A DNA stretch of 36,422 nt. It comes from a bacterium (GTDB lineage Bacteria; Sysuimicrobiota; Sysuimicrobiia; Sysuimicrobiales; Humicultoraceae). The notes under the pieces were generated by a model. That model made no database searches, was not told the DNA's origin, and saw only the letters and a program-made list of their open reading frames with translations. The stretch is taken from contig JBOGSE010000219.1 in NCBI GenBank assembly GCA_050694895.1, forward strand, positions 1 through 36,422, given 5' to 3'. The stretch's first letter is position 1; every line of letters begins with the position of its first letter. Made by a program: the position numbers and the translations under genes. Shown here piece by piece: positions 3,752 through 20,700 of the stretch.

Positions 3752-5689
3752 CTACGGCTTCGCTGGCCCGGGAGGCACTTTCGGCGCCCACGAATCCCCT
3801 TCGGGCGGCAGTGCCGACAGGCCAGCCTCGTCTGAGGCCAGGTGGCGAAGTATGGCCCGGATCCCGGCCTGGTCGCGCTGCGCGACCAGATGCTCGAGCT
3901 GCTGGAGCGCCAGCCGGAGCATCACCTCATCGGGCTCGCGCATCACGATGACTTCAAAGATGCCCGGGTGCGCCGACTCCCGCATCGTTTCGGATGAGGC
4001 CGCCAACTCCTCCTCCAGTTTCTCGCCAGGCCTGATGCCCATATAGACGATTGGGATATCGTTGTCGGGCTCAAGGCCGGACAGCCGGATGAGTTCCGCC
4101 GCAAGGTCGGCGATCCGGACAGGCTCGCCCATGTCCAGCACATACAACCCGTGCTGTTGTTCGGACAGCGACGCCTGCAGCACCAGGAGGACGGCCTCGG
4201 CCGGACTCATGAAATAGCGGGTCATCTCAGGATGCGTGAGCGTGACCGGACCGCCCCGGCGGATCTGCTCCTGCATCAGCGGGATGATGCTCCCACGGCT
4301 CCCCAGGACATTGCCAAACCTCACCGTGAGAAAGCGCGTTCGTCCGCGGCGGCTGAGCACCTGCGCGATGAGTTCGGCGACGCGCTTGGAGGCACCCATG
4401 ACGCTCGTCGGCTTCACGGCCTTGTCGGTTGAAATGAGCACGAACGTCTCTACGCCGTGCCGCACCGCGCCTTCCGCGACCGCCAGCGTCCCGAGGATGT
4501 TGGTCTTGACCGCTTCGTCCACATCCCGTTCCATGACCGGAACGTGCTTGTATGCGGCCGCATGGTAAATCACACGCGGCATCACCGAGTCGAGCACCCA
4601 GTCCATCTTGGCCGCGTCCCGCACGTCGGCGACGAGCGTGCGGAAGACGGCATCGGGGAAGAGCCGCTTGATCTCCTCTTCCAGCTCGAAGAGCCCGGTT
4701 TCGTTGATGTCGAGCGCGACGAGTTCGCAGTACGCCAGGTGCGCGATCTGTCGCACGAGCTCTGAGCCGATCGATCCGGCCGCACCCGTAATCAGCACCC
4801 GGCTCCCCTCGAGGCGCTGGGCGATCACGTCGGTGGCGATCGCGACCGGTGGACGACCGAGCAGGTCAGAGACCTCGACCTGTCGGGCATCTTTGAGTGT
4901 CACCCGTCCGGACAGCAGCTCGTGCACGCCGGGCAGGATGCGCATGCGCTGGATCCCCGACCGACGCACCCACTCGACAATCCCCCGAATCTCCTTGGAA
5001 GACGCAGACGGGATGGCGATCAACACCTCTTCCACGGAGCATCGCGCGACGATATCGGGAATCACGGTCCGGTCGCCAAAGACTCGCAACCCATGGATGT
5101 ACATTCCTCGCTTAGCGGGGTCGTCGTCGACGAACCCCACGGGCTGGTAGCCGTTGTGGGGCGATTCGGCCATCGCCTGCACGAGGCGGATCCCCGCCGC
5201 TCCGGCGCCGACCACCAGCAGCCGCGGACTGACACGCCCGGTGCGGCGGCCGCGGCGCTCATCGGCATACATCTTCCAGATTCGCCCGCTCACCCGAATG
5301 AGCCCCACGCCGCACATGGCGAGCACGAAGTCGATGGCCAGCACCGAGCGCGGAAACGAGTAGTAAGCGGCGAACGACCGCAGCAGCACGAGCCCCGCCG
5401 AGATGGTGAGCAGGGCGGCCCCGGCCGCCTTGAAGACGCCCAGGAGCTCGGACAACCCCACCGAGCGCCACGAGACGCGATAGAGGCGAAATGCCCAATG
5501 CCAGACGGCCTTGATCGGGATGAAGAGCAGCAACAACAGGGGAATGTGCCGGAGGTACCTCAGAGGGATCGACCCGTCGAATCGGATGAGGAACGCGCCG
5601 ACCAGCGCGAGGACCCAGACGGTCAGGTCCCCCGCGAAGAAGACCGCCGCGCGCAGTAGCGGCGTGCGCCTAACCACGAACCGGGACAC
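3752..5689 (-). CDS. Membrane-bound NDP-sugar 4,6-dehydratase, CapD/WbpM/PglF family
   Basis: 645 aa. N-terminal hydrophobic segments, two Rossmann glycine motifs (LLVVGAGAAG and VLITGAAGSIGSEL), and the MGASKRVAE (M-x3-K) variant of Y-x3-K typical of this family. Confidence 0.9.
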   Translation of the reverse strand: MSRFVVRRTPLLRAAVFFAGDLTVWVLALVGAFLIRFDGSIPLRYLRHIPLLLLLFIPIKAVWHWAFRLYRVSWRSVGLSELLGVFKAAGAALLTISAGLVLLRSFAAYYSFPRSVLAIDFVLAMCGVGLIRVSGRIWKMYADERRGRRTGRVSPRLLVVGAGAAGIRLVQAMAESPHNGYQPVGFVDDDPAKRGMYIHGLRVFGDRTVIPDIVARCSVEEVLIAIPSASSKEIRGIVEWVRRSGIQRMRILPGVHELLSGRVTLKDARQVEVSDLLGRPPVAIATDVIAQRLEGSRVLITGAAGSIGSELVRQIAHLAYCELVALDINETGLFELEEEIKRLFPDAVFRTLVADVRDAAKMDWVLDSVMPRVIYHAAAYKHVPVMERDVDEAVKTNILGTLAVAEGAVRHGVETFVLISTDKAVKPTSVMGASKRVAELIAQVLSRRGRTRFLTVRFGNVLGSRGSIIPLMQEQIRRGGPVTLTHPEMTRYFMSPAEAVLLVLQASLSEQQHGLYVLDMGEPVRIADLAAELIRLSGLEPDNDIPIVYMGIRPGEKLEEELAASSETMRESAHPGIFEVIVMREPDEVMLRLALQQLEHLVAQRDQAGIRAILRHLASDEAGLSALPPEGDSWAPKVPPGPAKP

Positions 5690-6860
5690 TGATCCTCACA
5701 CCTCCGCTCAGCGCGCGCGCGATATCAGCGATCTCATCGCGGGTCAGATCATTGAAGAAGGGCAGCGCTATCGCGCGCCGGCCGGCTTCCTCCGCGATTG
5801 GAAAGCTTCCGTCTGGATAGTGACCAAACCGCTGGAAGTATGGCTGGAGGTGCACCACGGGAAAGTAGGCCTTGCTGGGGATGCCGCGTCCTGACAGATG
5901 GGCCATGAGCCGGTCACGGTCCACCTCGCCATCGGTCCGGGCGACGTAGACGAACCAGCTGACTTTGGCCCATGGGGCGGCCCTTGGAAGCAGGAGGCCG
6001 GGGATGCCCGCGAGCGCCTCCTCATACCAGGCCGCGATCTGCGCCCGTTTGGCGGTCAGCGCCGAGAACCGCTTCATCTGGGCGACGCCCAACGCCGCGG
6101 ACAGCTCGTCCATCCGATAGTTGAAACCGAGCACGTCGTGCCGCAGCCAGTCGTCGCCCTCTGACCTTCCCTGATTGCGGGCGCTGCGACAGTACGCCGC
6201 GATCTGCTCGTCGTCGGTCACAATCATGCCGCCTTCGCCGGTAGTGATCTGCTTGTTCGGGTAAAAGGCGAAGACCGCAATGTCGGCGAGTGTTCCAGCC
6301 TTCACCCACCGCTGCCGCGCCGCCGAGTAGTACTCCGATCCCAGCGCCTCACAGGTATCGCACAGCAATCGCAGACCGTACGCGTCGGCGAGCGTCCGGA
6401 ATCCGTCCATCTTAATCGGGTGCCCGAAGACGGACACGGGCAGGATGCCGGCTAGCGGCCGGCCCGTCGCCTGCCGGATGAGGCGGCCGTCCACCGGGCG
6501 GTACTCGCGGTCAATAAACGCGGCCACGGTGGCAGGATCAAGGTTGAGCGTGATGGGATCGACATCCACGAAGACCGGGTGAGCCCGTTCGAGGAGCAGA
6601 ACGTTCGCCGTCGCTACAAACGTAAACGGTGTCGTGATCACCTCCACACCATCGCTGAACCCCAACGCCCGCGCGGCCAGATGCAACCCGGCCGTGCCGC
6701 TACTGACCGCGACCGCGTATCGCTTCCCAAGATACGCGGCGAAGAGGGCCTCAAACTCGACGACTTTGGGCCCCAGACTGAGCCGGGGCGTCCGCAGGAC
6801 GTCCAGAACCTCCTGCACCTCGCTCTCCGTGATATCAGGGCGCGATAGCGGGATTGTCAT
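5670..6860 (-). CDS. DegT/DnrJ/EryC1/StrS (PglE-like) PLP-dependent NDP-4-keto-sugar aminotransferase
   Basis: 396 aa. MTIPLSRPDITESEVQEVLDVLRTPRLSLGPKVVEFE..., AVSSGTAGLHL, and the PLP-lysine region FYPNKQITTGEGGMIV. Confidence 0.9.
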   Translation of the reverse strand: MTIPLSRPDITESEVQEVLDVLRTPRLSLGPKVVEFEALFAAYLGKRYAVAVSSGTAGLHLAARALGFSDGVEVITTPFTFVATANVLLLERAHPVFVDVDPITLNLDPATVAAFIDREYRPVDGRLIRQATGRPLAGILPVSVFGHPIKMDGFRTLADAYGLRLLCDTCEALGSEYYSAARQRWVKAGTLADIAVFAFYPNKQITTGEGGMIVTDDEQIAAYCRSARNQGRSEGDDWLRHDVLGFNYRMDELSAALGVAQMKRFSALTAKRAQIAAWYEEALAGIPGLLLPRAAPWAKVSWFVYVARTDGEVDRDRLMAHLSGRGIPSKAYFPVVHLQPYFQRFGHYPDGSFPIAEEAGRRAIALPFFNDLTRDEIADIARALSGGVRISVPVRG

Positions 6861-7503
6861 GACGACTCACTCCCTCTCCTTCGGGCACAAGCCATGTCAC
6901 CACGCTCCGGCGCAGGGTGCCGGAACACCCGGCCAGCGGCGTCAGCGCCAGGATCACCAGGTCGGTCAGCCAGGTCTTCCGCTGTGCGTAGGCCGCCTCC
7001 AGCGCAGCCTTCTGAGGCAGGACAATCGAAAAGTACGCCGCCTCGGGATCCTCGTAGGCTCCCAGCCGGCGTTCCTCGTCCAAGAACGCCAGCGTTCCGA
7101 TGCCCGTCATGCCGGGAGACGTCGCATAGATCTGCCTCGCCAGCGCCGGCGGGATGGCAGCGACCTCGTTGGGCGTCAGCGGCCGGGGTCCCACCAGGCT
7201 CATCTCTCCGCGGAGCACGTTGATCAGCTGCGGCAGCTCGTCAAGCTTGAGCGCGCGCAGCAACCGGCCCAGCGGCGTGATGCGCCGGTCCCCGCGGGCC
7301 GTCACGGTCGTCGAGGGGGCGCCGTCTGTCATCGTCTGGAACTTCACGATGACGAACGGGGCGAGGCCGCGGCCGACCCGGGGCTGGGCATAGAAGACAC
7401 GGCGCGTCATGATCCAGTTGAGGGTTGCGATCACCGCCATCGCGGGGGCCGCCACAACCAACAGCCCACCGGCCACCAGGATGTCGATGCCTCGACGGAT
7501 CAT
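6835..7503 (-). CDS. Small monotopic phosphoglycosyl transferase (bacterial sugar transferase, PglC/WbaP C-terminal-domain type)
   Basis: 222 aa. One N-terminal hydrophobic helix, KFQTM, and the signature DELPQLINVLRGEMSLVGPRP. Confidence 0.9.
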   Translation of the reverse strand: MIRRGIDILVAGGLLVVAAPAMAVIATLNWIMTRRVFYAQPRVGRGLAPFVIVKFQTMTDGAPSTTVTARGDRRITPLGRLLRALKLDELPQLINVLRGEMSLVGPRPLTPNEVAAIPPALARQIYATSPGMTGIGTLAFLDEERRLGAYEDPEAAYFSIVLPQKAALEAAYAQRKTWLTDLVILALTPLAGCSGTLRRSVVTWLVPEGEGVSRHDNPAIAP

Positions 7504-8099
7504 TGCTGGGCGGGAATATCGATCACGTAGATGTGCGCACTCTCACCGCGGTGAATCTGGGTCTCACCGAGAAACCGAAACCCCGAGCGGAGATACAGAC
7601 GGGACGCCCCAGCGTTGCTCGACGCCGTGCTTACCCGCACGCGCCCGACGCCACGGCGCGCAAACTCAGCCAGCACCTGTCGGACGAGGATGTCGGCGGT
7701 GCCCATGCCGCGTGAGGCGTGATCTACGGCGATCGAAACGAGTTCCGCGTCCGGCAGTGGAGAGGCCGCCGCATACCGGGTCGTCTCCACCAGCCGCCGC
7801 CATCGTCCAAGCCGAAAGGCCTGCCGGATCAGGACCGCAGTGGCCAGTCGCCAGTTTCGGATGAGAAACGTCCGGTAGAACCGCCGCCAGTGCACGACTC
7901 CGGTCGCGTACCCGACGGGGCGACCCTCGCGCTCCGCCAGAAACCCGAACCCCACCTCGCAGCCCAGCAGCGTCCGATAGAACGCGCTCACAAATGCCGG
8001 GCCCATGCTGGTGAGCAGGCCCCACGGAATCCCGGCCAGATGGAGTGCGGCAATCGCGCCGCTATCGGCCGGAAATGCCTTCCTGACCGATGCCGTCAA
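7500..8099 (-). CDS. GNAT family N-acetyltransferase
   Basis: 199 aa. GNAT motif A region LVSIAVDHASRGMGTADILV and the C-terminal NAGASRLYLRSGF. ATGA overlap with the downstream PGT gene. Confidence 0.8.
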   Translation of the reverse strand: MTASVRKAFPADSGAIAALHLAGIPWGLLTSMGPAFVSAFYRTLLGCEVGFGFLAEREGRPVGYATGVVHWRRFYRTFLIRNWRLATAVLIRQAFRLGRWRRLVETTRYAAASPLPDAELVSIAVDHASRGMGTADILVRQVLAEFARRGVGRVRVSTASSNAGASRLYLRSGFRFLGETQIHRGESAHIYVIDIPAQQ

Positions 8100-9246
8100 C
8101 AGCGCGTCCGCTCTTTTCTACCAGCAGTGTCCGATAGACCCCGAGGATCTGATCGATGATCCGTCGCTCATCGAATTCGGCCAGCGCCTTCTGACGATTG
8201 GCCTCTCCAAACTTCCGCCGCAGGTCAGGGGCATCCAGCAGACTGAGCACCGCCTCTTCGAGGGCGTCGGCGTCACGGGCCTGGACGAGGAGCCCGTTGC
8301 GCCCGCCGGTGACCACCTCGCGGCACCCACGAACATCGGTGAGGACCAGGGGCAGCCCCATGGCCGCTGCCTCCACCGCTGACCGCGGAAACCCCTCCCG
8401 GTACGATGGCAGCACAAAGATGTCCATCGCCCTGTAGAGCGCCGGCAGGTCGGTGCGCAGTCCCATGAATCGGACGATCCCGCGCCGCTCGAGGTCGGCC
8501 GTCACCCGCTGGGGCACCGCATCGGCTTTGCCGTCGTCCCGCGGGCCGACGGCGATGAAGCAGACGCCCGGCCGCCGGGCCCGCACGCGCTCGGCCATAG
8601 CAAAAAACTCCCGATAGCCTTTCTCCCAGACAAGGCGGCCGATCGTTCCGACCACGGTTGTCGCAGCATCGATCCCCAACGCCGCCCGCGCGACGGACCG
8701 ATCGACCGCGTCCGGGTCGAAGACCGTCAGGTTGACACCGTTCCCAATGAACGCCGATCGATCCGGCCGGGCGATCCCAAGCCGACGCAACATCTGGAGA
8801 TCCTCACGGCTCTGGCAAAACTCAAAGTCCGAACACGCAGAGGCCAGCCGTTCCAGTCCGAGATACATCGCCCGGCGCACGGCCCCCCCGTCTGTCCCGT
8901 AGAGACCGTGCACCGTGTTCACGACCACAGGCGTCCCGACCAGACGCGCCGCGATACGCCCAAACACGCCGGTCTTGGGATTGTGTGTGTGTACGATGTC
9001 GAACCGCTCCCGGCGCAAGATCCCGGTCAGCACGGTGCACGCCCGAACGTCGGCCAGCGGCGCCCACGAACGTCGCAGCGTCGGAACGGTCAGGTGGCGG
9101 ATACCTGCCGCCTGGAGCGCCTCGATCCATGGGCCGTCGCCGCTGATCGCCGTGACGTCGAATCCAGCCGCCTGAAAGGCGCGCAGCTGATGCCCCAGCA
9201 GAAGCTCAAGACTGATGTCGGATGTGGTCAGGTGCGCCAGTTTCAT
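8062..9246 (-). CDS. Glycosyltransferase family 4
   Basis: The ORF extends to 9684, but the first 146 codons overlap the upstream gene and are Arg/Gly-rich. ATG 9246..9244 (MKLAHLTTSDISLELLLGHQL) makes an ATGA overlap with the upstream stop. E-x7-E region LPSYREGFPRSAVEAAAMGLP. Confidence 0.85.
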   Translation of the reverse strand: MKLAHLTTSDISLELLLGHQLRAFQAAGFDVTAISGDGPWIEALQAAGIRHLTVPTLRRSWAPLADVRACTVLTGILRRERFDIVHTHNPKTGVFGRIAARLVGTPVVVNTVHGLYGTDGGAVRRAMYLGLERLASACSDFEFCQSREDLQMLRRLGIARPDRSAFIGNGVNLTVFDPDAVDRSVARAALGIDAATTVVGTIGRLVWEKGYREFFAMAERVRARRPGVCFIAVGPRDDGKADAVPQRVTADLERRGIVRFMGLRTDLPALYRAMDIFVLPSYREGFPRSAVEAAAMGLPLVLTDVRGCREVVTGGRNGLLVQARDADALEEAVLSLLDAPDLRRKFGEANRQKALAEFDERRIIDQILGVYRTLLVEKSGRAVDGIGQEGISGR

Positions 9247-10868
9247 TGCTGTCGCAGAGGCTCCGGTCCGCCGCTCACGAGCGCCTGCGTATGGAACGGC
9301 AAATGCTTCCCGCCCGCGGTCAGCACCGGCTCCCGCCGTACCACACGAATCGTTTCGGCCTCGCGCCACAGGGGCGGCATCACACTCTGCGATCGATTCC
9401 TCCCGCCCAGCTCTTCGATGAACCGGGCCCGTATGCGTGCCTCGTCGATCGGGCCGACAACCGGACTCACGACCAGGTAGATCCGGGTCATATGCTCGTC
9501 GTCCTCGGCCTCCAGCAACTGGTAATCGATGCTCCGACCACCGAATGCTTGAGGCAAGACCTGTTCCAGAATCCGCACGCAGTCCGTCCCGAGCACCGTC
9601 ACACCTTCCCCGGTGAGTTTTGAGAAGCTCCTGATCGCCGAGAGGTGCGTATGCATCCCGAGTTCGTCCCAGATGCACCCACACCGGCGTATGGTGACGT
9701 CACCAAAGTCGTCACTCTCGACGTTGAGGAGGATCTTCGGGCTGGACGGGAGGAGTGTCGTGAACACAAGGCTGTCCACCAGAGTCCCGTCAGGCAGCGG
9801 GCGTCTGTTCAATATGAGGGCAAAGCTATCCGACATCAGGTGCACGTCATCGATGGCCACCGGCCTAGCGCACGCACTGCCGACCGAGCCGAGTTCGGTG
9901 ATCGAATAGCGGGCCCCGATGCCTGCGCCGGAGCGCATGATCTCCTCGTACTTCCCGGGCGTCAACGGTTCTCCGCTCACGACAAAGGTGACGTGTTCCA
10001 GATCGATCCTTCGTTGTCTGGCGAGCCCGGCCAGCCGGACGCCTACACTCGGACTCACGGCCACCACACATCCGCCGTGCCTGTCGCGGGCCGCGCGCAC
10101 TGCGTCAAGCACCATGTCGGCATCGGCGAGCGGCGCGTACTCGGGATAGGGAATGCGCAACCCTCTCGTCATGCCCATGAGCTGGCCCAGCCGGAACATG
10201 ACTCGGTGGCGTCGTGGCACCGCCGCGCCCGACGGATCGGTCATGGAGAACCATCGCAGAGCAGGCCGGCCCATGTGCGCGAGCGCGAGCCACCAGACGA
10301 GACCACCGCCGTGGGCCACGGCCGGCTTCCAGACAATGATGGGCCACGACCCGACACCGAGCGCCTCGAGCATCACGCACCGCGCGGGCGTGCGCTGGTC
10401 GGCGAGGTAGTCGAGGGACGCTGGTACCCTGGATCCTCGGCTTCGGGTCCCGCTCGTTCGGAGCTCAAACGCCGCCCGGACCTTTGTGTTATCGAAGTCG
10501 CTCTCGCTGCACTGGAGGGTGAAGCCGGCGCGCTCGATCGGCTTCCACCCTTTGAACTCCTCGTAAGTGAGAAACACACCGGCGTCCCGCAGCGCCCCCA
10601 GCGTCGCTTCGAGGCCGCGCAGGCGCACCGACTCGGCCAATCTGTCCATTGACCATCCAGCCCACGCCAGCATCCGCTTGTAGGGGCTGGCGGCGTGCAG
10701 CCAGATCTCCCTCTCGACCACTTGCAGGAAGAGCCAGTCGCGAACCGCCAGTCGTTGCCGGATTCGTGCTCTGGCGTTCTCCGGCGTGCACGGGCGGAAG
10801 ATGAGCCTCCCCAGCCTGTGGGCGACGTGTGCGTAGGCCCCGAGGCCGGAAACGGTGGGCACGTTCAT
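9243..10868 (-). CDS. PaaK/CapK-like (coenzyme F390 synthetase-like) adenylate-forming enzyme, copy 1 of 2
   Basis: 541 aa. By-eye ANL/PaaK landmarks in the right order: divergent P-loop TSGTRSRGSRV; GEPLTPG; YSITELGSVGSAC; DDVHLMSD; FTTLLPSSPKILLNVESDDFGD; RRCGC; FSKLTGEGVTVLG; and a C-terminal GGKHLPF lysine. About 60-65 percent identical by eye to 22891..24519. Confidence 0.7.
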   Translation of the reverse strand: MNVPTVSGLGAYAHVAHRLGRLIFRPCTPENARARIRQRLAVRDWLFLQVVEREIWLHAASPYKRMLAWAGWSMDRLAESVRLRGLEATLGALRDAGVFLTYEEFKGWKPIERAGFTLQCSESDFDNTKVRAAFELRTSGTRSRGSRVPASLDYLADQRTPARCVMLEALGVGSWPIIVWKPAVAHGGGLVWWLALAHMGRPALRWFSMTDPSGAAVPRRHRVMFRLGQLMGMTRGLRIPYPEYAPLADADMVLDAVRAARDRHGGCVVAVSPSVGVRLAGLARQRRIDLEHVTFVVSGEPLTPGKYEEIMRSGAGIGARYSITELGSVGSACARPVAIDDVHLMSDSFALILNRRPLPDGTLVDSLVFTTLLPSSPKILLNVESDDFGDVTIRRCGCIWDELGMHTHLSAIRSFSKLTGEGVTVLGTDCVRILEQVLPQAFGGRSIDYQLLEAEDDEHMTRIYLVVSPVVGPIDEARIRARFIEELGGRNRSQSVMPPLWREAETIRVVRREPVLTAGGKHLPFHTQALVSGGPEPLRQQ

Positions 10869-11296
10869 CCCTGCGCGTAAATCTCTACGACCGCCGTTCC
10901 TTCGCTAACCAACTGACTGTCCTGCTTGACGGCCCAGATGTCCAAATCCACCGTGGTCTCCCCAGCCCGCCGGGTCGGGGTGGCGCGAATCCGCCCTTCG
11001 CACCGGATCAAGTCACCCACGCTCACTGGTGCGGTATGCCGAACGGCAAATCGCTTCAAGCGCCCATCGTCTCCCAGCCAGTCGGTGATCATTCTTGCGA
11101 TCAACGCGGTGCGAAAGTGTCCGCTTTGAATACAATCCATGAGGTGAAGGTGGTCACGCGCATAGGTCCGATCATAGTGGATGCGCAGCCAGTTCTCTTG
11201 ATACGCTGCCCACCGCACGAAGTCGGTCAGCCTGAAAGGTCCGACATGGAGGGCCGGTAGCGTCGTGCCCGGCTCCAGCACGAGCTCTGTCGTCAT
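10865..11296 (-). CDS. MaoC-like hot-dog fold protein (R-hydratase family) with a deviant hydratase-2 motif
   Basis: 143 aa. FVRWAAYQENWLRIHYDRTYA aligns by eye to the hydratase-2 motif, with His kept but Asn at the Asp position. C-terminal hot-dog strands GDLIRCEGRI...VDLDIWAVKQDSQLVSEGTAVV. ATGA overlap with the downstream ligase gene. Confidence 0.75.
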   Translation of the reverse strand: MTTELVLEPGTTLPALHVGPFRLTDFVRWAAYQENWLRIHYDRTYARDHLHLMDCIQSGHFRTALIARMITDWLGDDGRLKRFAVRHTAPVSVGDLIRCEGRIRATPTRRAGETTVDLDIWAVKQDSQLVSEGTAVVEIYAQG

Positions 11297-11299
11297 CTT

Positions 11300-12493
11300 T
11301 CAGCCGCGCGCGGCGCCCGTGGCCTCTCGCCGCGCCTGCGTCACGACCCCTTGCGCTTCCAGCGCGGCGATCTCGGCCGGCTCGAGGCCGATCTCACTGA
11401 GCACCGCCCCGGTGTGCTCGCCGCATCGCGGAGCCCGGCCCATCCCTTCGCCCAGCGGCGTCCGCAAATGGGGCATGTCGCCTTCGCCGCCGAGATGCCG
11501 AAAGAATCCGCGCGTCCGCAGGTGCCTGTCGCTCAACAGATCAAGCATGTCGTGCACGGGAGCCACGGGGACGCGCCGGGCCTGCGCGACGCGAGAGATC
11601 TCCACCTTGGAGAATGGCGCGGCCCACTCCGCCAGCACGCGAAAGATCTCGTCCTGCCTGCGCATCCTCGCGCTTTCGCTGGCCAACTCCTCGCCGCGCA
11701 GTCGCTTGTCGCCGACTGTGTCGACCAGCGCGCCCCATATCCCCTGTGCGCTCGCCGAGACAACGACATGGCCGTCGCGGCACGGCAGCGCGCCCGCCAC
11801 CGCGATGTGCGCGTGCCGGCTTCCCGCTCTCTTGACCACCCGTCCCCCGACTGAGGCTTCCAGGAGCCCCTGCTGCATGACGGACAGGAGCGCGTCATGC
11901 GCGCTCACCCGCACGAGCCGACCGCGGCCTGTCTTGCGGGCTGAGGCCAACCCGAGGAAGCCGGCCAGCGCGGCATACGTCGCAACGACCGCATTGGACA
12001 ACCCCCCGCCGATGAGCATGGGGGGCCCGCCGGGATCTCCCGTGATCGACATCAACCCGCTCAGCGCGCATCGGACGATCTCCGTGCTCTTGAACCCGCC
12101 GTCAGCGTCGGGCTCAAACCCCCTGACAGCCACCCACGTCAGACGTGGATTGGCATCGCAAGCCCGCGCATACGTCGCTTCGACTCCCTCAATGACTGGC
12201 TCGACGCCATCGATGACGAGGTCGACGCCGGCACACAGACGGGCGAGGATCTCGCGGCCCTCGTTCCGGCGCAGGTCGACGGCCACGCTGCGCTTTCCCG
12301 CATTGAAGTACTCGTGAATGACATCCTGAGGGTCCTCGGCCGTCGCAGGGTCGACGGTCACGGCGAGGTCGACCGAGCCCGCCGATTCCACCCGGATCAC
12401 GTCGGCCCCAAGGTCGGCGAGCAGCCGAGTGGCATAGAGCATCGACGGATCGGTCAAATCCAGCACCCGTGGTCGCATTGCGTCACAGCTCAT
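11300..12493 (-). CDS. Family III (CaiB/BaiF/Frc-type) CoA-transferase paralogue with Asn at the catalytic Asp position
   Basis: 397 aa. N-terminus RVLDLTDPSMLYATRLLADLGADVIRVES. The region that aligns to the active-site Asp of the neighbouring paralogue (SNSWADFVAGLHGAL) reads GGGLSNAVVATYAAL. Confidence 0.85.
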   Translation of the reverse strand: MSCDAMRPRVLDLTDPSMLYATRLLADLGADVIRVESAGSVDLAVTVDPATAEDPQDVIHEYFNAGKRSVAVDLRRNEGREILARLCAGVDLVIDGVEPVIEGVEATYARACDANPRLTWVAVRGFEPDADGGFKSTEIVRCALSGLMSITGDPGGPPMLIGGGLSNAVVATYAALAGFLGLASARKTGRGRLVRVSAHDALLSVMQQGLLEASVGGRVVKRAGSRHAHIAVAGALPCRDGHVVVSASAQGIWGALVDTVGDKRLRGEELASESARMRRQDEIFRVLAEWAAPFSKVEISRVAQARRVPVAPVHDMLDLLSDRHLRTRGFFRHLGGEGDMPHLRTPLGEGMGRAPRCGEHTGAVLSEIGLEPAEIAALEAQGVVTQARREATGAARG

Positions 12494-13026
12494 GGAGGAT
12501 CGGACGACGCCAGCGTGCGCGCGGTGACCTGACGGCTGACCGCCACGAGTTCTCCGTCTTGATCAACGTACGTCCGCTCCTCCGTGATGAAAACGGCGGG
12601 GCCCTCTGCCGTGCCCCTGGCGGTGATGTCGAGTATCTTGAACCGAACCGTAAGCCGGTCGCCGATGCGAATCGGCCTCATCCACTCGATGTCCGTCCCC
12701 GCATTGAGGCGGGCGACCTCGCGCGTCACGGTAATCGTGCCCGCCAGTCCCGCCAGCGAGGGAAACGCCCTCTCGCCGCTCTCGTCGACGCTATCGTGAC
12801 TCGGGGCGGGACGCACGACATCCAAGATCATCGCCGGCGGCGCGAGGGTACCGACGCGTCCGGCGTTATCGGCGAAATCGGCCGCCCCCCACAGCGGGTT
12901 GCAATCTCCCGTCGCGTTCATGTAGCGTCTGACATCGCTCCATTCGATGGCGCCAGGGGTCTCTACGGGTTCGCTCTCGCGCCCAATCCACGCGCGGAGC
13001 TCCGCGGGGAGTTCCATCTCGACCAC
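12490..13026 (-). CDS. MaoC N-terminal-type hot-dog protein (probable partner subunit of 10865..11296)
   Basis: 178 aa. YMNATGDCNPLWGAADFA is a near-complete hydratase-2 motif with Asp kept and His replaced by Trp. Hot-dog strands IRIGDRLTVRFKILDI...FITEERTYVDQDGELVAV. ATGA overlap with the downstream CoA-transferase. Confidence 0.7.
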   Translation of the reverse strand: MVEMELPAELRAWIGRESEPVETPGAIEWSDVRRYMNATGDCNPLWGAADFADNAGRVGTLAPPAMILDVVRPAPSHDSVDESGERAFPSLAGLAGTITVTREVARLNAGTDIEWMRPIRIGDRLTVRFKILDITARGTAEGPAVFITEERTYVDQDGELVAVSRQVTARTLASSDPP

Positions 13027-13033
13027 CTCGTCG

Positions 13034-14242
13034 CTACGCGAGCACGCCTTCGTCGTGCAGCCGGGCGAGCTCCGCGTCGCTCATCCCCAGCAGATCGTGG
13101 AGGACCTCGCGCGTGTGTTCGCCGAGCCGCGGGCCGGCACGGTCGACACGGGCGCCGGCGGCGTCAAATCGAATCGGCGCAGGGAATACCGGCATCTCGC
13201 CGATCACCGGATGGTGGACAGACCGCCGTCCGGGGGAGAATCGCGGGAGGTCGTCGAGGACCTCACCGGTAGTGCGGACCGCGGTCGCTGGAATCCCCGC
13301 CCGCTGGAGCGTTTCCTCCGCCTGACGGGCGGGCCGACGCCGAGTCCAGGCCTCGATGCTGCGGTCGATCTCTTCGGCGTGCGCCAGCCGGGCCTGAAGC
13401 GAATCGAAGCGGGGATCCGAGAGAACATCATCACCTAAGAGGCCTACAAGTGACCGCCACTCGGCGGCGTCTCCCACGCTCAACACGCACCAGGCGTCCT
13501 CGCCATCGCATCGGTAACACCCTTGCGGCGCGCGCGTCATCGACCGATTGCCCGCGCGCCCCACCGCCCGCCCGGCGCGCTGAGATGCCATCACCAGATG
13601 CCCAAGCGGCAGCACATTCGCCTCATACTGGCTCAGGTCAATCCAGCACCCCTGCCCATGCACCTCGCGCCGGCACAGCGCCGCCGCGACGACGAGGGCC
13701 CCGTGGAGACCGGCGACAAAATCGGCCCAGGAGTTCGACACGGCGACGGGAGGATCACCGGGGCTGCCGGTTGTGAGCATCAGGCCCGAGAGGGCCTGAA
13801 TGATGATGTTGAAGCTCACCCAATCCGCGTGCGGGCCGTGAGCGCCCAACCCGGACATGCTCACATAGATCAGTCGCCGGTTGCGCTCCAGCACCCGGTC
13901 CGGGCCCAGGCCCAGTCGCTCCATGACCCCAACGCTGAAGTTCTCGGTCAGCACGTCGCTGCGCTCCGCAAGCGCCAGCGCGATCTCGATACCTTCAGGA
14001 TGCTTGAGGTTGATGGCCACGGAGCGCTTGTTGCGATTCAGGCTCGCGAAGATGGCGCTTCCCTCGAGGTCCTGGGGGCCACCCGGCCGAAACGGGCCCA
14101 GCCGGCGCGCCTGATCCGGCGCCATGCCGCTTTCCACCTTTACGACGTCCGCGCCCAAGTCTGCCAGAAGACTCGTCGCAAAGGGCCCCGTCACGACGTG
14201 ACCAAAGTCGAGAATGCGCACCCCAGAAAGTGGAAGGCTCAT
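13034..14242 (-). CDS. Family III CoA-transferase (catalytic Asp present)
   Basis: 402 aa. MSLPLSGVRILDFGHVVTGPFATSLLADLGADVVKVES and the active-site region VSNSWADFVAGLHGALVVAAAL (D...G.H, as in Frc-type enzymes). Confidence 0.9.
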   Translation of the reverse strand: MSLPLSGVRILDFGHVVTGPFATSLLADLGADVVKVESGMAPDQARRLGPFRPGGPQDLEGSAIFASLNRNKRSVAINLKHPEGIEIALALAERSDVLTENFSVGVMERLGLGPDRVLERNRRLIYVSMSGLGAHGPHADWVSFNIIIQALSGLMLTTGSPGDPPVAVSNSWADFVAGLHGALVVAAALCRREVHGQGCWIDLSQYEANVLPLGHLVMASQRAGRAVGRAGNRSMTRAPQGCYRCDGEDAWCVLSVGDAAEWRSLVGLLGDDVLSDPRFDSLQARLAHAEEIDRSIEAWTRRRPARQAEETLQRAGIPATAVRTTGEVLDDLPRFSPGRRSVHHPVIGEMPVFPAPIRFDAAGARVDRAGPRLGEHTREVLHDLLGMSDAELARLHDEGVLA

Positions 14243-14279
14243 GCCGCGTTGCTGACCAACGTCGCCCGGCTCTGCACTG

Positions 14280-15158
14280 CTACAGATACAGGGTGCCCAC
14301 CCGCACCGAGCCCACCAGCCGTCCCATCTGTCCAGCTGCTACCCGGAGCCAGACTCCCTGCCGCTCACCGATGAAGAAATCCCCCACATGGAGAAGGAGC
14401 CAGGCGTACTGGCGCGCCGCCCGTCCGAGGTTTCGGGGCATCCCGTATCGCCGAAACTTCTTAAAGAGTATGGGATGTACAATGCCATAACGAAAATGCT
14501 GACGCCAGACCTCCTCCAACCGCTCGCGCCGGCGTTTCAGTACAATAGCAGCGGGCTCGACATGCAGGTCGAATCCCGCGAGCTGCACTCTCCAGCAAAA
14601 GTCCACATCCTCGGTCGGCAATTTCTCATCAAACCCCGCAACACGCTCCAACGCCGTCCGGGAGACGCTCAGGTTCGCCGTAAGGCCATAGGGTAGAAAC
14701 GCGAAGAAATCGTGCCCGCTCTTCTCTCTCCCCCCGCTGCCTGTCACGTGGCCCTTCGTGGAGGGGGACGCTTTCTCTGGATGCATGACTCCCAAGAACT
14801 GAATCTCGCCCGCCACGAGATGATGACGTTCGAGCGCGGCCGCCATCGCACCAAGCCAGCCCGGTTGCACGACGTCGTCCTGATCGCAGAAGAGGAATGC
14901 ATCCCCCGCCGCCACCGTAGCCGCGATGTTGTAGGCGGCGCCGGGGCCGCGACGGGCTGAGGCATCGATCACACGGAGATGAGGCATCTTGTCTTTGAAG
15001 GCGCGAGCGATCTCAAGTGTACGATCGCTGGAGCCGTTGTCCGCCACGATCAGTTCCCAGGAGCCGTCGTATGTCTGTCCGGCGAGCGCCTCGAGCTGCT
15101 CGCCGATCGTCTCTTCCCCATTCCAGGTGGCTACGATGACGGACAGGGTGCGGCCCAT
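14280..15158 (-). CDS. Glycosyltransferase family 2
   Basis: The ORF extends to 15494 over the 3' end of the upstream aminotransferase gene. ATG at 15158 gives MGRTLSVIVATWNGEETIGEQLEALAGQTYDGSWELIVADNGSSDRT, and the DxD-type motif FCDQDDV follows. Confidence 0.85.
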   Translation of the reverse strand: MGRTLSVIVATWNGEETIGEQLEALAGQTYDGSWELIVADNGSSDRTLEIARAFKDKMPHLRVIDASARRGPGAAYNIAATVAAGDAFLFCDQDDVVQPGWLGAMAAALERHHLVAGEIQFLGVMHPEKASPSTKGHVTGSGGREKSGHDFFAFLPYGLTANLSVSRTALERVAGFDEKLPTEDVDFCWRVQLAGFDLHVEPAAIVLKRRRERLEEVWRQHFRYGIVHPILFKKFRRYGMPRNLGRAARQYAWLLLHVGDFFIGERQGVWLRVAAGQMGRLVGSVRVGTLYL

Positions 15159-15178
15159 CGCGCTGTCAGGGTTCTGGC

Positions 15179-16327
15179 TCAATGGCCCACCGGCAGCCCC
15201 GGCCCCTGGCCGGCATGGGCCGCGGAGGAAAACGCCAATACGACCTCGACCACTCGCGCGACCTGAGAGTCTGTCAGATGCGGACCTAGCGGGAGGCTCA
15301 GGGCCTGGGTGTGGATCTCCTCGGCGATCGGGAAGCCTCCGGCGGGCACCTCGAGCCATCGGTAGGCCTCTTGCAGGTGCGGCGGGATCGGGTAATGGAC
15401 CAAGGCCTGGGTGCCGCACTTCGCCAGGTGCTCGCGCAAGGCATCCCGGCGTTGGCTTCGCACCACAAACAGATGCCAACACGGCTCCGCCCATTCCGGG
15501 ACGAAGGGCAAGACAATCCCCGCGGTCCGTAGGTCCTCCAAGTAGGTTGCGGCGACGCGCCGGCGCCGGGCATTCCAGATATCAAGCCAACGCAACTTGA
15601 CGCGCAAAATAGCCGCCTGCATCTCATCCAAGCGGCTGTTGTATCCACAGACCTCGCTGACGTACTTCCGCGACGATCCATAGTTGCGAAGGAGGGCGAC
15701 GCGATGCGCAAGATGCGCATCGTTCGTGGTGACCGCGCCGGCGTCGCCAAAGGCCCCGAGGTTTTTGGTCGGATAGAAGCTCCACCCTGCGGCGTGTCCC
15801 AGGGCGCCGGCCCGGCGGGCGTGGTAGCGGGCTCCGTGTGCCTGCGCGGCGTCCTCAAGCACCCAGAGGTCGTGACGTCGGGCGATGTCCATAATCGGAT
15901 CCATGTCCGCTGACTGCCCATAGAGATGCACTGGGACAATCGCTTTCGTTCGCGGCGTGATCGCGTCTTCCAGCCGCTCGGGATCAAGGTTATAGGTCCG
16001 AGAATCCGGTTCTACCGGCACGATACCCGCGCCCGTCTGGCTGACCGCCAGCCACGTCGCGATGTACGTGTTGCTCGGGACGACCACCTCGTCGCCCGCG
16101 CCAACCCCCATGGCGCAAAGGGACAGATGCAGCGCCTCTAAGCCGTTGCCCACCGCGACGCAGTATTGAGTTCCGACATAGGCGGCGAACTCTCGCTCGA
16201 ACGCCTCCACCTCTTGACCGAGGATGTACCACCCGCTCGCGAGCACCCGGGCCACGGCTTCGTCGATCTCGGCCTTGAGCTCCCGATAGGTGACCCCGAC
16301 ATCGAGAAAGGGAACGTTACTGTCCAT
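15179..16327 (-). CDS. DegT-family dTDP-3-keto-6-deoxyhexose 3-aminotransferase (FdtB/QdtB-like)
   Basis: The start is placed at the internal Met ([37 protein letters not shown]), which matches the usual N-terminus of this family. PLP-lysine region [16 protein letters not shown]. It lies directly downstream of an FdtA-like isomerase gene. Confidence 0.85.
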
Positions 16328-16733
16328 GTTGCTTGGCCGCCTCAAGGAACGCCTCGTAGTCACGGTGATAGTCGGATTCGTCATAGAGGTCGCTGGCAAG
16401 CACCATATACACCGTCCCCTGCTCGAAATCGCCTTCGGCAGCCCATATCATCGGGGGGATGTACAACCCAAGCCAGGGCCGGTCGAGCCTGATCCCCCGC
16501 CTCTGATGACCATCATCCAGGGCCACCTCCAGGCCCCCAGCCAAACAGACGATGACCTGTTGAAGCGTCTTGTGAGCATGGGCTCCCCGAGTTCCTCCGC
16601 GGGGAACGTCATAGACGTAGAAGACCCTGCGAATCTGAAACGGAACGTGTCGAGTCTCTTCAACAAATGTGAGACTTCCCCGCGAGTCGAAGACCTTAGG
16701 GAATTCAAGAAGACGGCATCGCTCGAGCCCCAT
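16317..16733 (-). CDS. WxcM/FdtA/QdtA-like cupin: dTDP-4-keto-6-deoxyglucose 3,4-ketoisomerase
   Basis: 138 aa from the internal Met: [26 protein letters not shown]...[19 protein letters not shown]...[15 protein letters not shown]. The HAHK histidine pair and overall length match FdtA-type isomerases. An alternative start is at 16790. Confidence 0.8.
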
Positions 16734-16796
16734 GACGTGCCCTTTACCAGGACCAGCTCGCCGGCGCCCACGCGGCGTGGGCGTGCACATAGCGTC

Positions 16797-17816
16797 TCAC
16801 GAACCTCTCAGCGCCCCTTCATACCACGCCGCGTAGTACCGCAGGTACTCCCCCGACTTGACCGCCTCCCACCAGGCGCGATGACGTTGATACCACTCAA
16901 CGGTCCTGGCCAACCCTTCTGCGAGTGAAATTTTCGGCGTCCATCCCAGCGCCTGCCTCGCCCTGCCTGCATCGAGCGCATACCGCCGGTCGTGGGCCGG
17001 GCGATCGCGTGTGAACTGCAAGAGACTCGGAGAAGCGCCCACAAGCCTGAGAATCGTCTCCGCCACGGCGATGTTAGGCAGCACGCCTCCAGCGGCGAGA
17101 TTGTAGACGCCCTCCAGTCGTGCGCAGTCCACCGCGGCCAGAAGCGCGGCGCAGTGGTCCTCGACGAACAACCAGTCCCGTTCCTGGCGGCCGTCGCCGT
17201 AGACGGGAATGGGCTTGCGCTCCATGGCGTTGGTGATCGCCAGCGGGATGAGCTTTTCTGGGAACTGGAACGGGCCATAGTTGTTTGTGCACCGGGTAAT
17301 GACGACCGGCACACCATGGGTCTTGGCGTATGCCTGGCACAGCAGGTCGGCGGCGGCTTTACTTGCCGCGTAGGGACTCGTTGGATGAAGGGGCGCGTCC
17401 TCGGCAAACGCTACGGCCGGCGGGGTCGGCCCATACACCTCATCGGTGCTCACCTGAATGAACCGTTGCACCCCGAACTGCAGCGCCGCATCCAGCAGGA
17501 CCCGCACACCTCCGACGTTGGTGTGGATGAACGGGCCAGCGTCCATGATGCTGCGGTCGACGTGAGACTCTGCGGCGAAATTCGCGACGACGTCGACGCC
17601 ATCTCGAAACACGCCGTGCACCGTCGGTGGATCCCCGATGTCACCCTTCACAAACCTAAAGTGGGGGTGCGTGGCCACGTCGCGAAGGTTTTCGAGGTTG
17701 CCGGCATAGGTCAGCTTGTCCAACACCGTAACCTGCCACTCTGGCCGGCATCGCACTACATGTCGGGCAAAGTGACTCCCGATGAATCCCGACCCGCCCG
17801 TAATGAGAATCTTCAT
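16797..17816 (-). CDS. rfbB: dTDP-glucose 4,6-dehydratase (RmlB/RfbB)
   Basis: 339 aa. MKILITGGSGFIGSHF, SPYAASKAAADLL (Y-x3-K), and a C-terminal region typical of RmlB. Confidence 0.95.
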   Translation of the reverse strand: MKILITGGSGFIGSHFARHVVRCRPEWQVTVLDKLTYAGNLENLRDVATHPHFRFVKGDIGDPPTVHGVFRDGVDVVANFAAESHVDRSIMDAGPFIHTNVGGVRVLLDAALQFGVQRFIQVSTDEVYGPTPPAVAFAEDAPLHPTSPYAASKAAADLLCQAYAKTHGVPVVITRCTNNYGPFQFPEKLIPLAITNAMERKPIPVYGDGRQERDWLFVEDHCAALLAAVDCARLEGVYNLAAGGVLPNIAVAETILRLVGASPSLLQFTRDRPAHDRRYALDAGRARQALGWTPKISLAEGLARTVEWYQRHRAWWEAVKSGEYLRYYAAWYEGALRGS

Positions 17817-18274
17817 CGGTGGCTGAGGCTCCAGTCGTAGGGGACACCGGGGTCGTCGTGAGGGAGCCGATACTCGTCCGGTGCTAGATAGTCATAGATC
17901 CGGGTGGGGATGTTGACGAGGATCGCCTCGCGCGGCCCCTCAGCCGCGACGCCGTGGTACACGAGCGGTGGAACGATGACCAACAGTGGATTGAGGACAC
18001 CGGTATGAAACTCGTTGATGACGCCCTTCGTGGGACTCTCATTCCGGGGATCGTACAGCACGATTCTTGCCATGCCTCGGATGCAGACGAAGTAGTCCCA
18101 CTGATCCCTGTGATAGTGCCAGGCTTTGATCACCCCGGGATAGCACGCTGTCAGATAGACCTGCCCAAAGGCGCGGAACTCCGGCCAGTCGCTCCGCAGC
18201 ATTTCCATGAGAAATCCGCGATCGTCGGGCAGGACCTTCAACGACCTGACGGTCACACCGTTGATCAGGTTCAC
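17813..18274 (-). CDS. Short (SpsL-type) dTDP-4-dehydrorhamnose 3,5-epimerase-like cupin
   Basis: 153 aa. LKVLPDDRGFLMEMLRSDW...PGVIKAWHYHRDQWDYFVCIRGMARIVLYD...VPPLVYHG. RmlC-family cupin of the short form. ATGA overlap with rfbB. Confidence 0.75.
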   Translation of the reverse strand: MNLINGVTVRSLKVLPDDRGFLMEMLRSDWPEFRAFGQVYLTACYPGVIKAWHYHRDQWDYFVCIRGMARIVLYDPRNESPTKGVINEFHTGVLNPLLVIVPPLVYHGVAAEGPREAILVNIPTRIYDYLAPDEYRLPHDDPGVPYDWSLSHR

Positions 18275-18286
18275 CGCACTCTCCCG

Positions 18287-19354
18287 CTAGATTGTGATTT
18301 CTGAATGGTCGCTGATGAACACTCGCAGGGCCTTCGGGCCATTCTCTGCCCGCCGGATGGTCACGAAGCGTCCCAGCACGCTGTCTTCCAACCGATCGAT
18401 GCCTACAAGCTGGCAGTGTGCCAGGACGACGGAGTGCTGCACCGCCACTTGCGCCACCACCGTATCGTGGCCGATCGCGGTATACGGCCCCACGAATGCA
18501 TCACGGATCTGGCACCGTTCGCCGACAACTACCGGGCCGCGAATGACGCTGCGCTCGACGGTGGTGCCTGGACCGATCTCCACCCGGCCCGTGACGACCG
18601 AGGCCTCGTCCACCGTGCCCTGGATCTTCCGTGTCGCAATCTCATCCAGAACGGCTCGGTTGGCCTCCAGCAGATCATCCTTCTTCCCCGTATCAAGCCA
18701 CCAGCCGTCGAGTTTGACCGTTTCCACCTTGGCTCCACTACTGGACAGTTCCTGAATGGCGTCGGTGATCTCTAGCTCACCCCGTCGCGATGGACGGATT
18801 CGGTCGATGGCCGCGTGAACGCTCGGCCGGAAGAAGTACACTCCCACTAGCGCGAGGTTGCTCGGCGGATGCTGTGGCTTTTCGATCAGGGCGGTCATCC
18901 TCCCGTCGGCATCCACGACGGCCACGCCGAACTGGCGCGGGTCGGCGACCTCCTTCAGGAGGATAAGGGCTTCGGCATCGCTTTCCAGGAACCGGCTGTG
19001 GAGGTGCTGCACCCCGCCCTGAATCAGGTTATCCCCCAGAAACATCAGGAACGGACTGTCCCCAAGGAATGGGCGGGCCGTACGGACCGCGTGCGCTAGT
19101 CCGCCGGGCACGTCCTGTGGAATGTAACTGATCTTCACACCCCATTGCTCGCCGTTGCCCACGGAGTTGCGGATGGCTTCCCCCGTCTCCGGATCAATGA
19201 TGATGCCGACATCTCGGATACCGGCCTGCGCGACCTGGTCCAGGACAAAATGCACGATGGGTCGGTTGGCCACCGGAATCAGCTGCTTGGCGCCCGTGTG
19301 GGTCAGCGGCCTCAGCCGCGTGCCCCGTCCCCCGCACAGCACCAGGCCCTTCAT
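18287..19354 (-). CDS. rmlA: Glucose-1-phosphate thymidylyltransferase, long form with a C-terminal left-handed beta-helix
   Basis: The start is placed at [33 protein letters not shown] (355 aa). The alternative ATG is at 19381. The ORF-track extension to 19546 (GTG) is Arg-rich and unlikely to be coding. Confidence 0.85.
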
Positions 19355-19398
19355 CTGGTTCCCGTTGGTCAGATCCGTCATGTTCCTACACGACCGAC

Positions 19399-20666: not shown

Positions 20667-20700
20667 CTCTTCGGTCGGGTTGGGGACGGGACCTGGCCAG

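Follow-up and report, generated by a model that had tools for sequence, protein, structure and literature searches.

A gene block predicted to encode a two-subunit family III CoA-transferase and a two-subunit MaoC-type hydratase in a bacterial glycan locus

Results

Two CoA-transferase genes alternate with two hot-dog genes

A 36,422-nucleotide stretch of a Sysuimicrobiota genome (contig JBOGSE010000219.1 of assembly GCA_050694895.1; hereafter the window) is organized as one long co-directional array of minus-strand genes. Within it, two genes for family III coenzyme A (CoA) transferases alternate with two genes for proteins of the hot-dog fold, in the order CoAT-A, hot-dog N, CoAT-B and hot-dog C (Table 1). 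We favor, with moderate confidence, the interpretation that these four genes encode two heteromeric enzymes, a CoA-transferase and a MaoC-type hydratase, that would act in sequence. The open reading frames (ORFs) lie exactly where a preliminary description of this DNA had placed them, with the spacings of +7, −4 and +3 nucleotides that it gave, and the four motifs that it quoted are all present in the proteins. An additional 4-nucleotide overlap (ATGA) joins the stop codon of hot-dog C to the start of the next gene, which encodes a putative ligase described below.

For comparison, we examined the orthologous contigs L001, L003 and L085–L091 and one JGI contig, the last of these without DNA. 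The database copy of CoAT-B has 392 amino acids and starts five codons later than our model, leaving an 11-nucleotide gap in place of the −4 overlap; because the hot-dog N/CoAT-B junction overlaps in most orthologous loci, we favor the longer start. A scan of positions 8000..23500 for promoters and terminators yielded nothing above the shuffled expectation, and hence no internal operon boundary can be claimed there.

All four proteins match Pfam families far beyond chance. CoAT-A and CoAT-B match CoA_transf_3 (PF02515, the Frc/CaiB/BaiF family) over its full length, covering profile positions 1–366 (1.3e-106, 357 bits) and 5–366 (5.8e-66, 223 bits), respectively. hot-dog N matches FAS1_DH_region (PF13452), the HadA-like 'N-terminal' hot dog (7e-14), and hot-dog C matches MaoC_dehydratas (PF01575; 4e-7). 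These two hot-dog types are encoded together in the window, and the combination is kept in all related loci.

One CoA-transferase paralogue keeps the catalytic aspartate

Family III CoA-transferases require an aspartate to form covalent anhydride and thioester intermediates, and they assemble as interlocked dimers in which each substrate site is built from two subunits (PMC9196870). CoAT-A contains this residue. Its Asp174, which lies within the motif SNSWADFVAGLH and corresponds to Asp169 of Frc/CaiB, aligns with the Asp of 4ed9 and with that of chain B of the benzylsuccinate CoA-transferase 9fn0, its best solved relative (8e-71; 242 bits versus 117 bits for chain A). Asp174 is unchanged in all nine orthologues compared, as are the H15..GP and ENFS.G motifs, and the SNS[WL]ADF motif is kept with an invariant Asp.

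The CoAT-B residue opposite Frc Asp169 and the Asp of 4ed9 is an Asn. CoAT-B is closest to the other 9fn0 chain, A (9e-35; 124 bits versus 77 bits for chain B), and in a gapless alignment this chain has a Tyr at the same column, which means that one subunit of the Bbs enzyme also lacks the canonical Asp. The preliminary description had assigned an Asp to one CoA-transferase and an Asn to the other, and these alignments bear it out; its proposal of a BbsEF-type heteromer likewise gains from the finding that the two paralogues, whose genes are separated by hot-dog N alone, are each related to a different Bbs subunit. We also considered a recent tandem duplication of a CoA-transferase and hot-dog unit, which is unlikely because CoAT-A and CoAT-B share only ~31–33% identity and have different Bbs chains as their nearer relatives.

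The Asn is no family trait. Among 25 CoAT-B orthologues, the column holds Asn in 13 and Asp in 12, and a position at which the two residues are exchanged so freely is unlikely to be that of a nucleophile. The earlier view that one paralogue is catalytic and the other structural fits our data, but the Asn on which it was built, being present about as often as Asp, is by itself no evidence for it. The degeneracy of CoAT-B, as judged from alignments, consists instead of lost N-terminal motifs, faster divergence and, in fused forms, a C-terminal truncation. CoAT-B lacks the N-terminal H..GP and ENF..G motifs that are present in CoAT-A, Frc and both Bbs chains. Compared across the same nine loci, its mean identity is 54% (63% for CoAT-A), with 20% invariant columns (34% for CoAT-A). 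The orthologue family (P0001–P0034) shares at least 49% identity, after which the next relatives drop sharply to 33%, and the best NCBIfam match, succinyl-CoA:mesaconate CoA-transferase, falls far below the family cutoff. CoAT-B thus appears to have the family III fold without being a demonstrably catalytic member, and CoAT-A is probably the catalytic subunit, with CoAT-B as its non-catalytic partner.

The hot-dog pair combines a ChsH2-like subunit with a Glu-Asn variant of MaoC

Catalysis in MaoC hydratases relies on a His as the base, an Asp that positions the water and an oxyanion hole formed by a Gly where the central helix starts, with the dyad contributed by a single subunit (PMC11321319). 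In the heteromeric ChsH1–ChsH2, one subunit carries the His/Asp dyad, and the other has a Tyr in place of the His and accommodates the bulky part of the substrate (PMC11321319).

The family profile of hot-dog N aligns its GDCNPLW...APPAMI with GDRNPIY...APPAMI of ChsH2. The Asp (Asp41) is kept, the His is replaced by Trp (Trp46), both as previously described, and Ala or Pro stands where the oxyanion Gly would be. With neither the catalytic His nor the oxyanion Gly, hot-dog N appears to be a ChsH2-like, non-catalytic subunit. Its match to HadA is weak, and its profile also weakly touches the itaconyl-CoA hydratase 8khg.

The closest solved sequence relative of hot-dog C is HadB. A family profile of 40 sequences matches HadB at 4e-9 and, like the single sequence, aligns without gaps at the motif, with Asn35 opposite the Asp and His40 opposite the His, in agreement with the earlier reading. 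Gly59, at the beginning of the central helix, aligns with the Gly in 'AHG' of HadB, and the spacing of Asn35, His40 and Gly59 (5 and 19) equals that of Asp201, His206 and Gly225 in Shy (PMC11321319). hot-dog C therefore has the His and the oxyanion Gly of the hydratase-2 motif but, with an invariant Asn35, not its Asp/His dyad. A direct profile–profile alignment of hot-dog N and hot-dog C reaches a probability of 1.7%, and the equivalence of their motifs is taken via ChsH2 and HadB.

The preliminary description had read these substitutions as complementary defects, with one degenerate member in each pair. That holds for CoAT-B and hot-dog N, and the argument was half right; hot-dog C is not degenerate. 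Its 40 relatives share 27 invariant columns, including R28, W29, A30, Y32, Q33, E34, N35, W36, H40, D42, Q57, S58 and G59, so that the Asn, variable in CoAT-B, is strictly fixed here together with Glu34, His40 and Gly59. Nor is a kept Asp next to an aromatic residue in place of His a defect in hot-dog N, as it is the normal state of the non-catalytic ChsH2 subunit (PMC11321319). A composite active site that borrows the Asp of hot-dog N is disfavored by two of nine orthologous loci (L001 and L088), in which both Asp41, there a Gly, and Trp46 are replaced and hot-dog C is unchanged; the Asp is evidently dispensable. The proposal of a heteromeric hydratase stands, in that one protein is of the PF13452 (HadA/ChsH2) type and the other of the PF01575 (HadB/ChsH1) type.

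To place the Glu-Asn motif, we searched 1.84 billion representative sequences, in which the exact hot-dog C clade comprises three clusters at 50% identity, and inspected the ~150 best MaoC matches. In this sample, which is biased towards the query, the conserved His is preceded by Glu-Asn in 39 proteins and by the canonical Gly-Asp in 42. The variant Glu-Asn-[WY]-x-x-[IL]-His is common among uncharacterized MaoC proteins (P0283–P0320 and others; L092:5483-6507), which usually have a HadA/ChsH2-type hot dog as a partner, either separate or fused. Because the motif is invariant in the 40 relatives and common elsewhere, we count hot-dog C as a putative member of a widespread, uncharacterized variant of the MaoC catalytic subunit. 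Asn35, probably with the help of Glu34, most likely takes over the water-positioning role. Speculatively, a catechol-derived and probably dicarboxylic acid as the substrate could rationalize an uncharged Asn in the active site.

A natural fusion and a second operon link the four proteins

Two lines of evidence suggest that CoAT-A, CoAT-B, hot-dog N and hot-dog C form one functional unit. First, CoAT-B and hot-dog C are naturally fused in two independent sequences, P0032 and P0033 (the latter at L085:5220-6656), and the fused CoAT-B has lost its last ~40 residues. Second, an unrelated metagenomic operon, found around the Glu-Asn hot dog P0308 (L093:2625-8291 and L094:468-6134), encodes two CoA-transferases, one of 402 residues with the Asp and the N-terminal motifs in place and a truncated one of 363 residues that has Ala at the Asp column and lacks these motifs, as well as two hot dogs, one ChsH2-like (…LDPSPRYF) and one with Glu-Asn, and an HMGL-like C–C lyase. 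The same logic of a catalytic and a degenerate CoA-transferase plus a non-catalytic and a Glu-Asn hot dog is thus found again, here joined to another lyase. This operon also encodes an isochorismatase-like protein and a second small hot-dog pair, and it is flanked by a LysR regulator, a TonB receptor and HpaB. Together with the adjacency and tight coupling of the four genes in at least ten loci, its composition favors the two heteromeric pairs suggested previously.

The four genes belong to a seven-gene cassette

In all complete loci, at least ten including the window, L001, L003 and L085–L091, the four genes follow three others: those for a two-domain VOC protein, a thiolase-fold protein and a DUF35 protein. 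The junctions within this seven-gene cassette are overlaps of 1–8 nucleotides in most cases. In the window, and only there, a dTDP-3-amino-3,6-dideoxyhexose module separates CoAT-A from the DUF35 gene and so splits the cassette; this insertion carries genes for a methyltransferase, an RmlA-like protein with an LbH tail, a cupin, RmlB, FdtA, a DegT protein and a GT2 glycosyltransferase. In all relatives the two genes abut, with the DUF35 gene directly upstream of CoAT-A.

Of the seven proteins, the thiolase-fold protein has the highest conservation (75% mean identity). Its solved relatives are 4u4e (8e-62) and the Ltp2 aldolase 6ok1 (2e-54). A Val occupies the position of the nucleophilic Cys of the archaeal thiolase 7yvy, and the protein has an invariant YDCF that compares with YDCY of CtSal and YDCF of TbSLP, YDC[FY] being the catalytic motif of the Sal/SLP aldolases (PMC12329534). 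As the nucleophilic Cys is missing and YDCF is kept, the protein is more likely a retro-aldolase than a thiolase. The adjacent gene completes the Sal/Ltp2-type arrangement; DUF35 proteins are known partners of aldolases of this type.

The VOC protein resembles type I extradiol dioxygenases, with catechol 2,3-dioxygenase 3hpv (5e-22) and homoprotocatechuate 2,3-dioxygenase as solved relatives. In the 3hpv alignment, a His, a His-His pair, a further His, a Tyr and a Glu are identical, and we take these residues to be those that bind the metal and serve in catalysis. Two of the loci (L086:2406-5440 and L090:2674-5611) carry, immediately upstream of the VOC gene, genes for Rieske dioxygenase alpha and beta subunits, an ORF of 76–81 residues and a short-chain dehydrogenase, which by homology would constitute an aromatic 'upper pathway' inside a glycan locus. 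In L085, an isochorismatase gene precedes the cassette.

The CoAT-B family is rare and essentially confined to metagenomes. When the CoAT-B alignment was used to scan 185,579 species-representative genomes, one of the 80 loci retrieved, the 2.5-kb fragment L005, was a true orthologue, and a hidden Markov model scan of these 80 loci revealed no further cassette. Some relatives are labeled Armatimonadota. One metagenome-assembled genome, GCA_030157145.1, contains three diverged copies of the whole cassette (L003, L086 and L091) in different glycan contexts, which represent either true paralogous loci or a mixed bin.

The cassette adjoins amino-sugar genes and PaaK-like ligase genes

Almost always, the cassette lies next to genes of a bacillosamine type. 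After hot-dog C, the order GT4 glycosyltransferase, GNAT acetyltransferase, Bac_transf phosphoglycosyl transferase, DegT aminotransferase, PglF-like dehydratase and DUF218 occurs in nine of eleven places and is shared by L001, L003, L085, L087, L088, L090, L091 and the JGI contig. On the basis of these families, we assign the downstream genes as a putative initiating-sugar module of the bacillosamine type. Wzm/Wzt-type ABC transporter genes also lie in the window and mark its glycan locus as probably ABC-transporter-dependent.

The window cassette is flanked by two paralogous ORFs of 541 and 542 residues that are 64% identical over 533 residues. The 541-residue ORF has no match in Pfam (even at an E value of 10), NCBIfam or a sequence search of the PDB, and the 542-residue ORF has none in Pfam. 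An AlphaFold2 model of the former (predicted local distance difference test score, pLDDT, of 86) has PaaK1 (2y27_B) as its top Foldseek match (E value of 1.8e-15), followed by other AMP ligases of the PaaK family; with empty sequence searches, the assignment as a PaaK-like ligase comes from this fold comparison. At least 181 relatives of these ORFs exist, nearly all annotated as 'hypothetical' and several with Armatimonadota names.

Two further features of the window are noted. In an 870-residue ORF, two complete GT4 glycosyltransferase modules follow one another. Upstream of the cassette, between a GNAT (Acetyltransf_9) gene and a polysaccharide deacetylase gene, lies a conserved ORF of ~440 residues without a family match, which is also found at L003:900-2219.

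Table 1. Positions and annotation of the genes and modules discussed, in window coordinates
Feature	Coordinates	Strand	Length	Annotation
CoAT-A	13034..14242	minus	402 aa	Family III CoA-transferase; presumed catalytic subunit
hot-dog N	12490..13026	minus	178 aa	HadA/ChsH2-type hot dog (PF13452); presumed non-catalytic, substrate-accommodating subunit
CoAT-B	11300..12493	minus	397 aa	Divergent family III CoA-transferase paralogue; presumed non-catalytic partner
hot-dog C	10865..11296	minus	143 aa	HadB/ChsH1-type MaoC hot dog; presumed catalytic hydratase subunit
DUF35 protein	20298..20666	minus		Stand-alone zinc ribbon and OB fold (PF01796, 3e-23); presumed aldolase partner
Thiolase-fold protein	20701..21903	minus	~400 aa	Sal/SLP/Ltp2 aldolase type; start inferred from orthologues
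VOC protein	21923..22891	minus	~300-320 aa	Type I extradiol dioxygenase-like (PF00903, 9e-29); start uncertain
Inserted module	14280..20301	minus		dTDP-3-amino-3,6-dideoxyhexose genes
PaaK-like ligase	9243..10868	minus	541 aa	Adenylate-forming ligase (ANL superfamily); start overlaps hot-dog C stop
Second PaaK-like ligase	22891..24519	minus	542 aa	Paralogue of the preceding ligase
Downstream module	3752..9684	minus		The five genes below, assigned by Pfam
GT4	8062..9684	minus		Glycosyltransferase; start probably shorter
GNAT	7500..8099	minus		Acetyltransferase
Bac_transf	6835..7503	minus		Phosphoglycosyl transferase
DegT	5670..6860	minus		Aminotransferase
PglF-like	3752..5689	minus		4,6-dehydratase
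Conserved ORF	25379..26749	minus	~440 aa	No family match
Tandem GT4 ORF	29999..32611	minus	870 aa	Two complete GT4 modules
Wzm/Wzt-type genes	33385..35588			ABC transporter

Discussion

A proposed route from free acid to C–C cleavage

From the observed homologies, residue patterns, conservation and synteny, the fusion of CoAT-B to hot-dog C and the second occurrence of the module, we infer which proteins form physical heteromers, which subunits are active, in what order and direction the steps run and what kind of substrate is used, as follows. In the first step, a free acid, probably unsaturated or dicarboxylic, would be converted to its CoA thioester at the expense of another acyl-CoA by a BbsEF-like CoAT-A/CoAT-B heteromer, in which CoAT-A would supply the catalytic Asp and CoAT-B would complete the interlocked dimer as the non-catalytic partner and might also serve as an adaptor to the hydratase. 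In the second step, the resulting enoyl-CoA would be hydrated by the hot-dog pair, which resembles ChsH2/ChsH1 or HadA/HadB: His40 of hot-dog C would act as the base, the backbone of Gly59 would form the oxyanion hole and Asn35, with Glu34, would position the water, and hot-dog N would shape the substrate pocket. In the third step, the 3-hydroxyacyl-CoA would undergo retro-aldol C–C cleavage by the Sal-type aldolase and its DUF35 partner.

The extradiol dioxygenase of the cassette and the Rieske dioxygenases of two loci suggest that the substrate derives from the cleavage of a catechol ring or from an aromatic acid. The constant neighbors, namely GNAT, PglC-, PglE- and PglF-like proteins and PaaK-like ligases, further suggest that the product of the cassette decorates a bacillosamine-type amino sugar of a surface glycan, which is the least certain part of our proposal. 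Supplying or trimming an unusual acyl substituent of such a glycan is a plausible role. These elements can be joined in a more elaborate reading, which we put forward tentatively and consider rather improbable as a whole. Here, a CoA-transferase–hydratase–aldolase assembly with DUF35 would use the pseudo-CoA-transferase CoAT-B to dock the hydratase, as the fusion might suggest; the Glu-Asn hot dog would be an unrecognized MaoC variant tuned to acidic enoyl-CoAs (dicarboxylic and derived from ring cleavage); and the assembly would supply or trim an aromatic-derived acyl group on a bacillosamine-type sugar of an Armatimonadota surface glycan.

Relation to characterized systems

BbsEF has been reported to be an α2β2 enzyme. 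It shares with the cassette a paralogous family III pair in which CoAT-A corresponds to chain B of 9fn0 and CoAT-B to chain A, which also lacks the canonical Asp. The similarity is modest at the E values given above, and CoAT-B is more degenerate than the BbsE-like chain A, which keeps GP- and RPG-type motifs. No bss or bbs genes for the dehydrogenases or the crotonase-type hydratase are present in the window or the related loci, and a literature search found no paper on the 9fn0 structure. By homology, the CoA-transferase pair would work like BbsEF; by context, it appears not to be a benzylsuccinate enzyme.

The hydratase and aldolase side is closest in composition to ChsH1–ChsH2–Ltp2 and Shy–Sal, which likewise combine a catalytic MaoC hot dog with a non-catalytic one that has an aromatic residue in place of the His (PMC11321319), and a DUF35 protein with a thiolase-fold retro-aldolase that has YDC[FY] and no nucleophilic Cys (PMC12329534). 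In those systems, however, the DUF35 domain is fused to a hot dog, whereas here it is encoded by a separate gene; the catalytic hot dog of the cassette has Glu-Asn in place of Gly-Asp; and the cassette lacks an acyl-CoA dehydrogenase and any steroid context, the acid being activated by a CoA-transferase. The mycobacterial (3R)-hydroxyacyl-acyl carrier protein (ACP) dehydratases HadAB and HadBC are also encoded by separate PF13452 and PF01575 genes, but HadB has the canonical Asp/His dyad and acts on ACP-bound substrates, and no fatty-acid synthase II context is found here. Judged by its context, the block would lie outside both the benzylsuccinate and the steroid pathways, and its catalytic hot dog departs from the canonical Asp.

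In itaconate and mesaconate degradation, a family III CoA-transferase (Ict/Mct) is followed by a MaoC-type hydratase (Ich/Mch) and a CoA-ester lyase. The logic of activation, hydration and C–C cleavage is the same, but the enzymes of that pathway are homomeric or fused, its lyases are of the CitE/HpcH type and it is not known to be linked to glycan loci. The L093/L094 operon, for its part, differs from the cassette in its non-alternating gene order, in having an HMGL-like lyase in place of Sal and DUF35, in its catabolic-looking context and in CoA-transferases that are 25–32% identical to those of the cassette.

Alternative interpretations

Several observations weigh against two sequential heteromeric enzymes. 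About half of the CoAT-B orthologues (12 of 25) keep the Asp, and some of these may retain activity. The change from Asp to Asn in hot-dog C could abolish or alter hydratase chemistry, and the clade of Glu-Asn MaoC proteins is uncharacterized, with none in the PDB and none named by NCBIfam. In the window, ~6 kb of dTDP-sugar genes separate the aldolase side from the four genes, making the cassette non-contiguous, and it is not obvious why glycan loci should contain a pathway that looks catabolic.

The fixed Glu-Asn motif, unlike that of every characterized MaoC hydratase we found, and the near-perfect GDxNPL of hot-dog N in seven of nine orthologues could point to altered or composite chemistry. 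The hot-dog pair would then be no plain hydratase and might act as an isomerase, a decarboxylase-coupled hydratase, a thioesterase or an enzyme assembled from Asp41 of hot-dog N and His40 of hot-dog C. We consider this unlikely, as Asp41 is absent from the other two orthologues with no change in hot-dog C, hot-dog C keeps the His and the oxyanion Gly in a family whose dyad comes from a single subunit (PMC11321319), and in both the cassette and the L093/L094 operon the module is followed by a C–C lyase that needs a 3-hydroxyacyl-CoA.

The proposed direction could also be reversed. The aldolase would then couple an acyl-CoA to a ketone or aldehyde, perhaps a keto-sugar or an aldehyde from ring cleavage, the hot-dog pair would dehydrate the product, the CoA-transferase would release or exchange the acid, and the PaaK-like ligases or the GNAT protein would attach this unusual acid to an amino sugar. 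Such a biosynthetic role would suit the constant position of the cassette within glycan biosynthesis loci, beside GNAT, DegT, PglF-like and PaaK-like ligase genes, and reversibility has been reported for every enzyme of the related Bbs pathway (PMC10818641). The characterized relatives (Bbs, Chs/Ltp2 and Shy–Sal) are nevertheless all catabolic, and the extradiol dioxygenase, accompanied in some loci by a Rieske dioxygenase and a dehydrogenase, is typical of degradation, which makes the reverse direction improbable in our view.

Most family III CoA-transferases and many MaoC hydratases are homodimeric (PMC9196870; PMC11321319). If the same were true here, each CoA-transferase would be an active homodimer with its own substrate, as the Asp in half of the CoAT-B orthologues might allow, and each hot dog would be a homodimeric hydratase or thioesterase. 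Four independent enzymes are very unlikely, considering that CoAT-B lacks the conserved N-terminal motifs and, in 13 of 25 orthologues, the nucleophile; that hot-dog N, like ChsH2, lacks the catalytic His and the oxyanion Gly; and that the four genes are never apart in the loci examined and a fusion ties CoAT-B to hot-dog C. Finally, that the Asn-bearing copies are pseudogenes on their way out, as substitutions at textbook catalytic positions might imply, is scarcely credible and is contradicted by the conservation pattern: the ORFs are intact, tightly coupled and 54% identical on average over diverged loci, and the variant motif is itself among the invariant columns of hot-dog C.

Implications

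Were all four proteins ordinary enzymes, the block would be just one more CoA-transferase/hydratase operon. If two sequential heteromeric enzymes are indeed encoded here, the CoA-transferase pair would represent a second, independent lineage of two-subunit family III CoA-transferases with one pseudo-enzyme subunit, and such a subunit would help to explain the heteromeric state of BbsEF-type enzymes. hot-dog C would represent a large, unstudied MaoC subgroup with Glu-Asn in place of Gly-Asp at the water-positioning site, which would offer a cheap mutational test of the mechanism. The cassette as a whole would tie a pathway of aromatic ring cleavage and CoA esters to the surface-glycan clusters of a barely cultured phylum, and it would hint at an unusual non-sugar substituent or at a new acyl donor for amino-sugar acylation.

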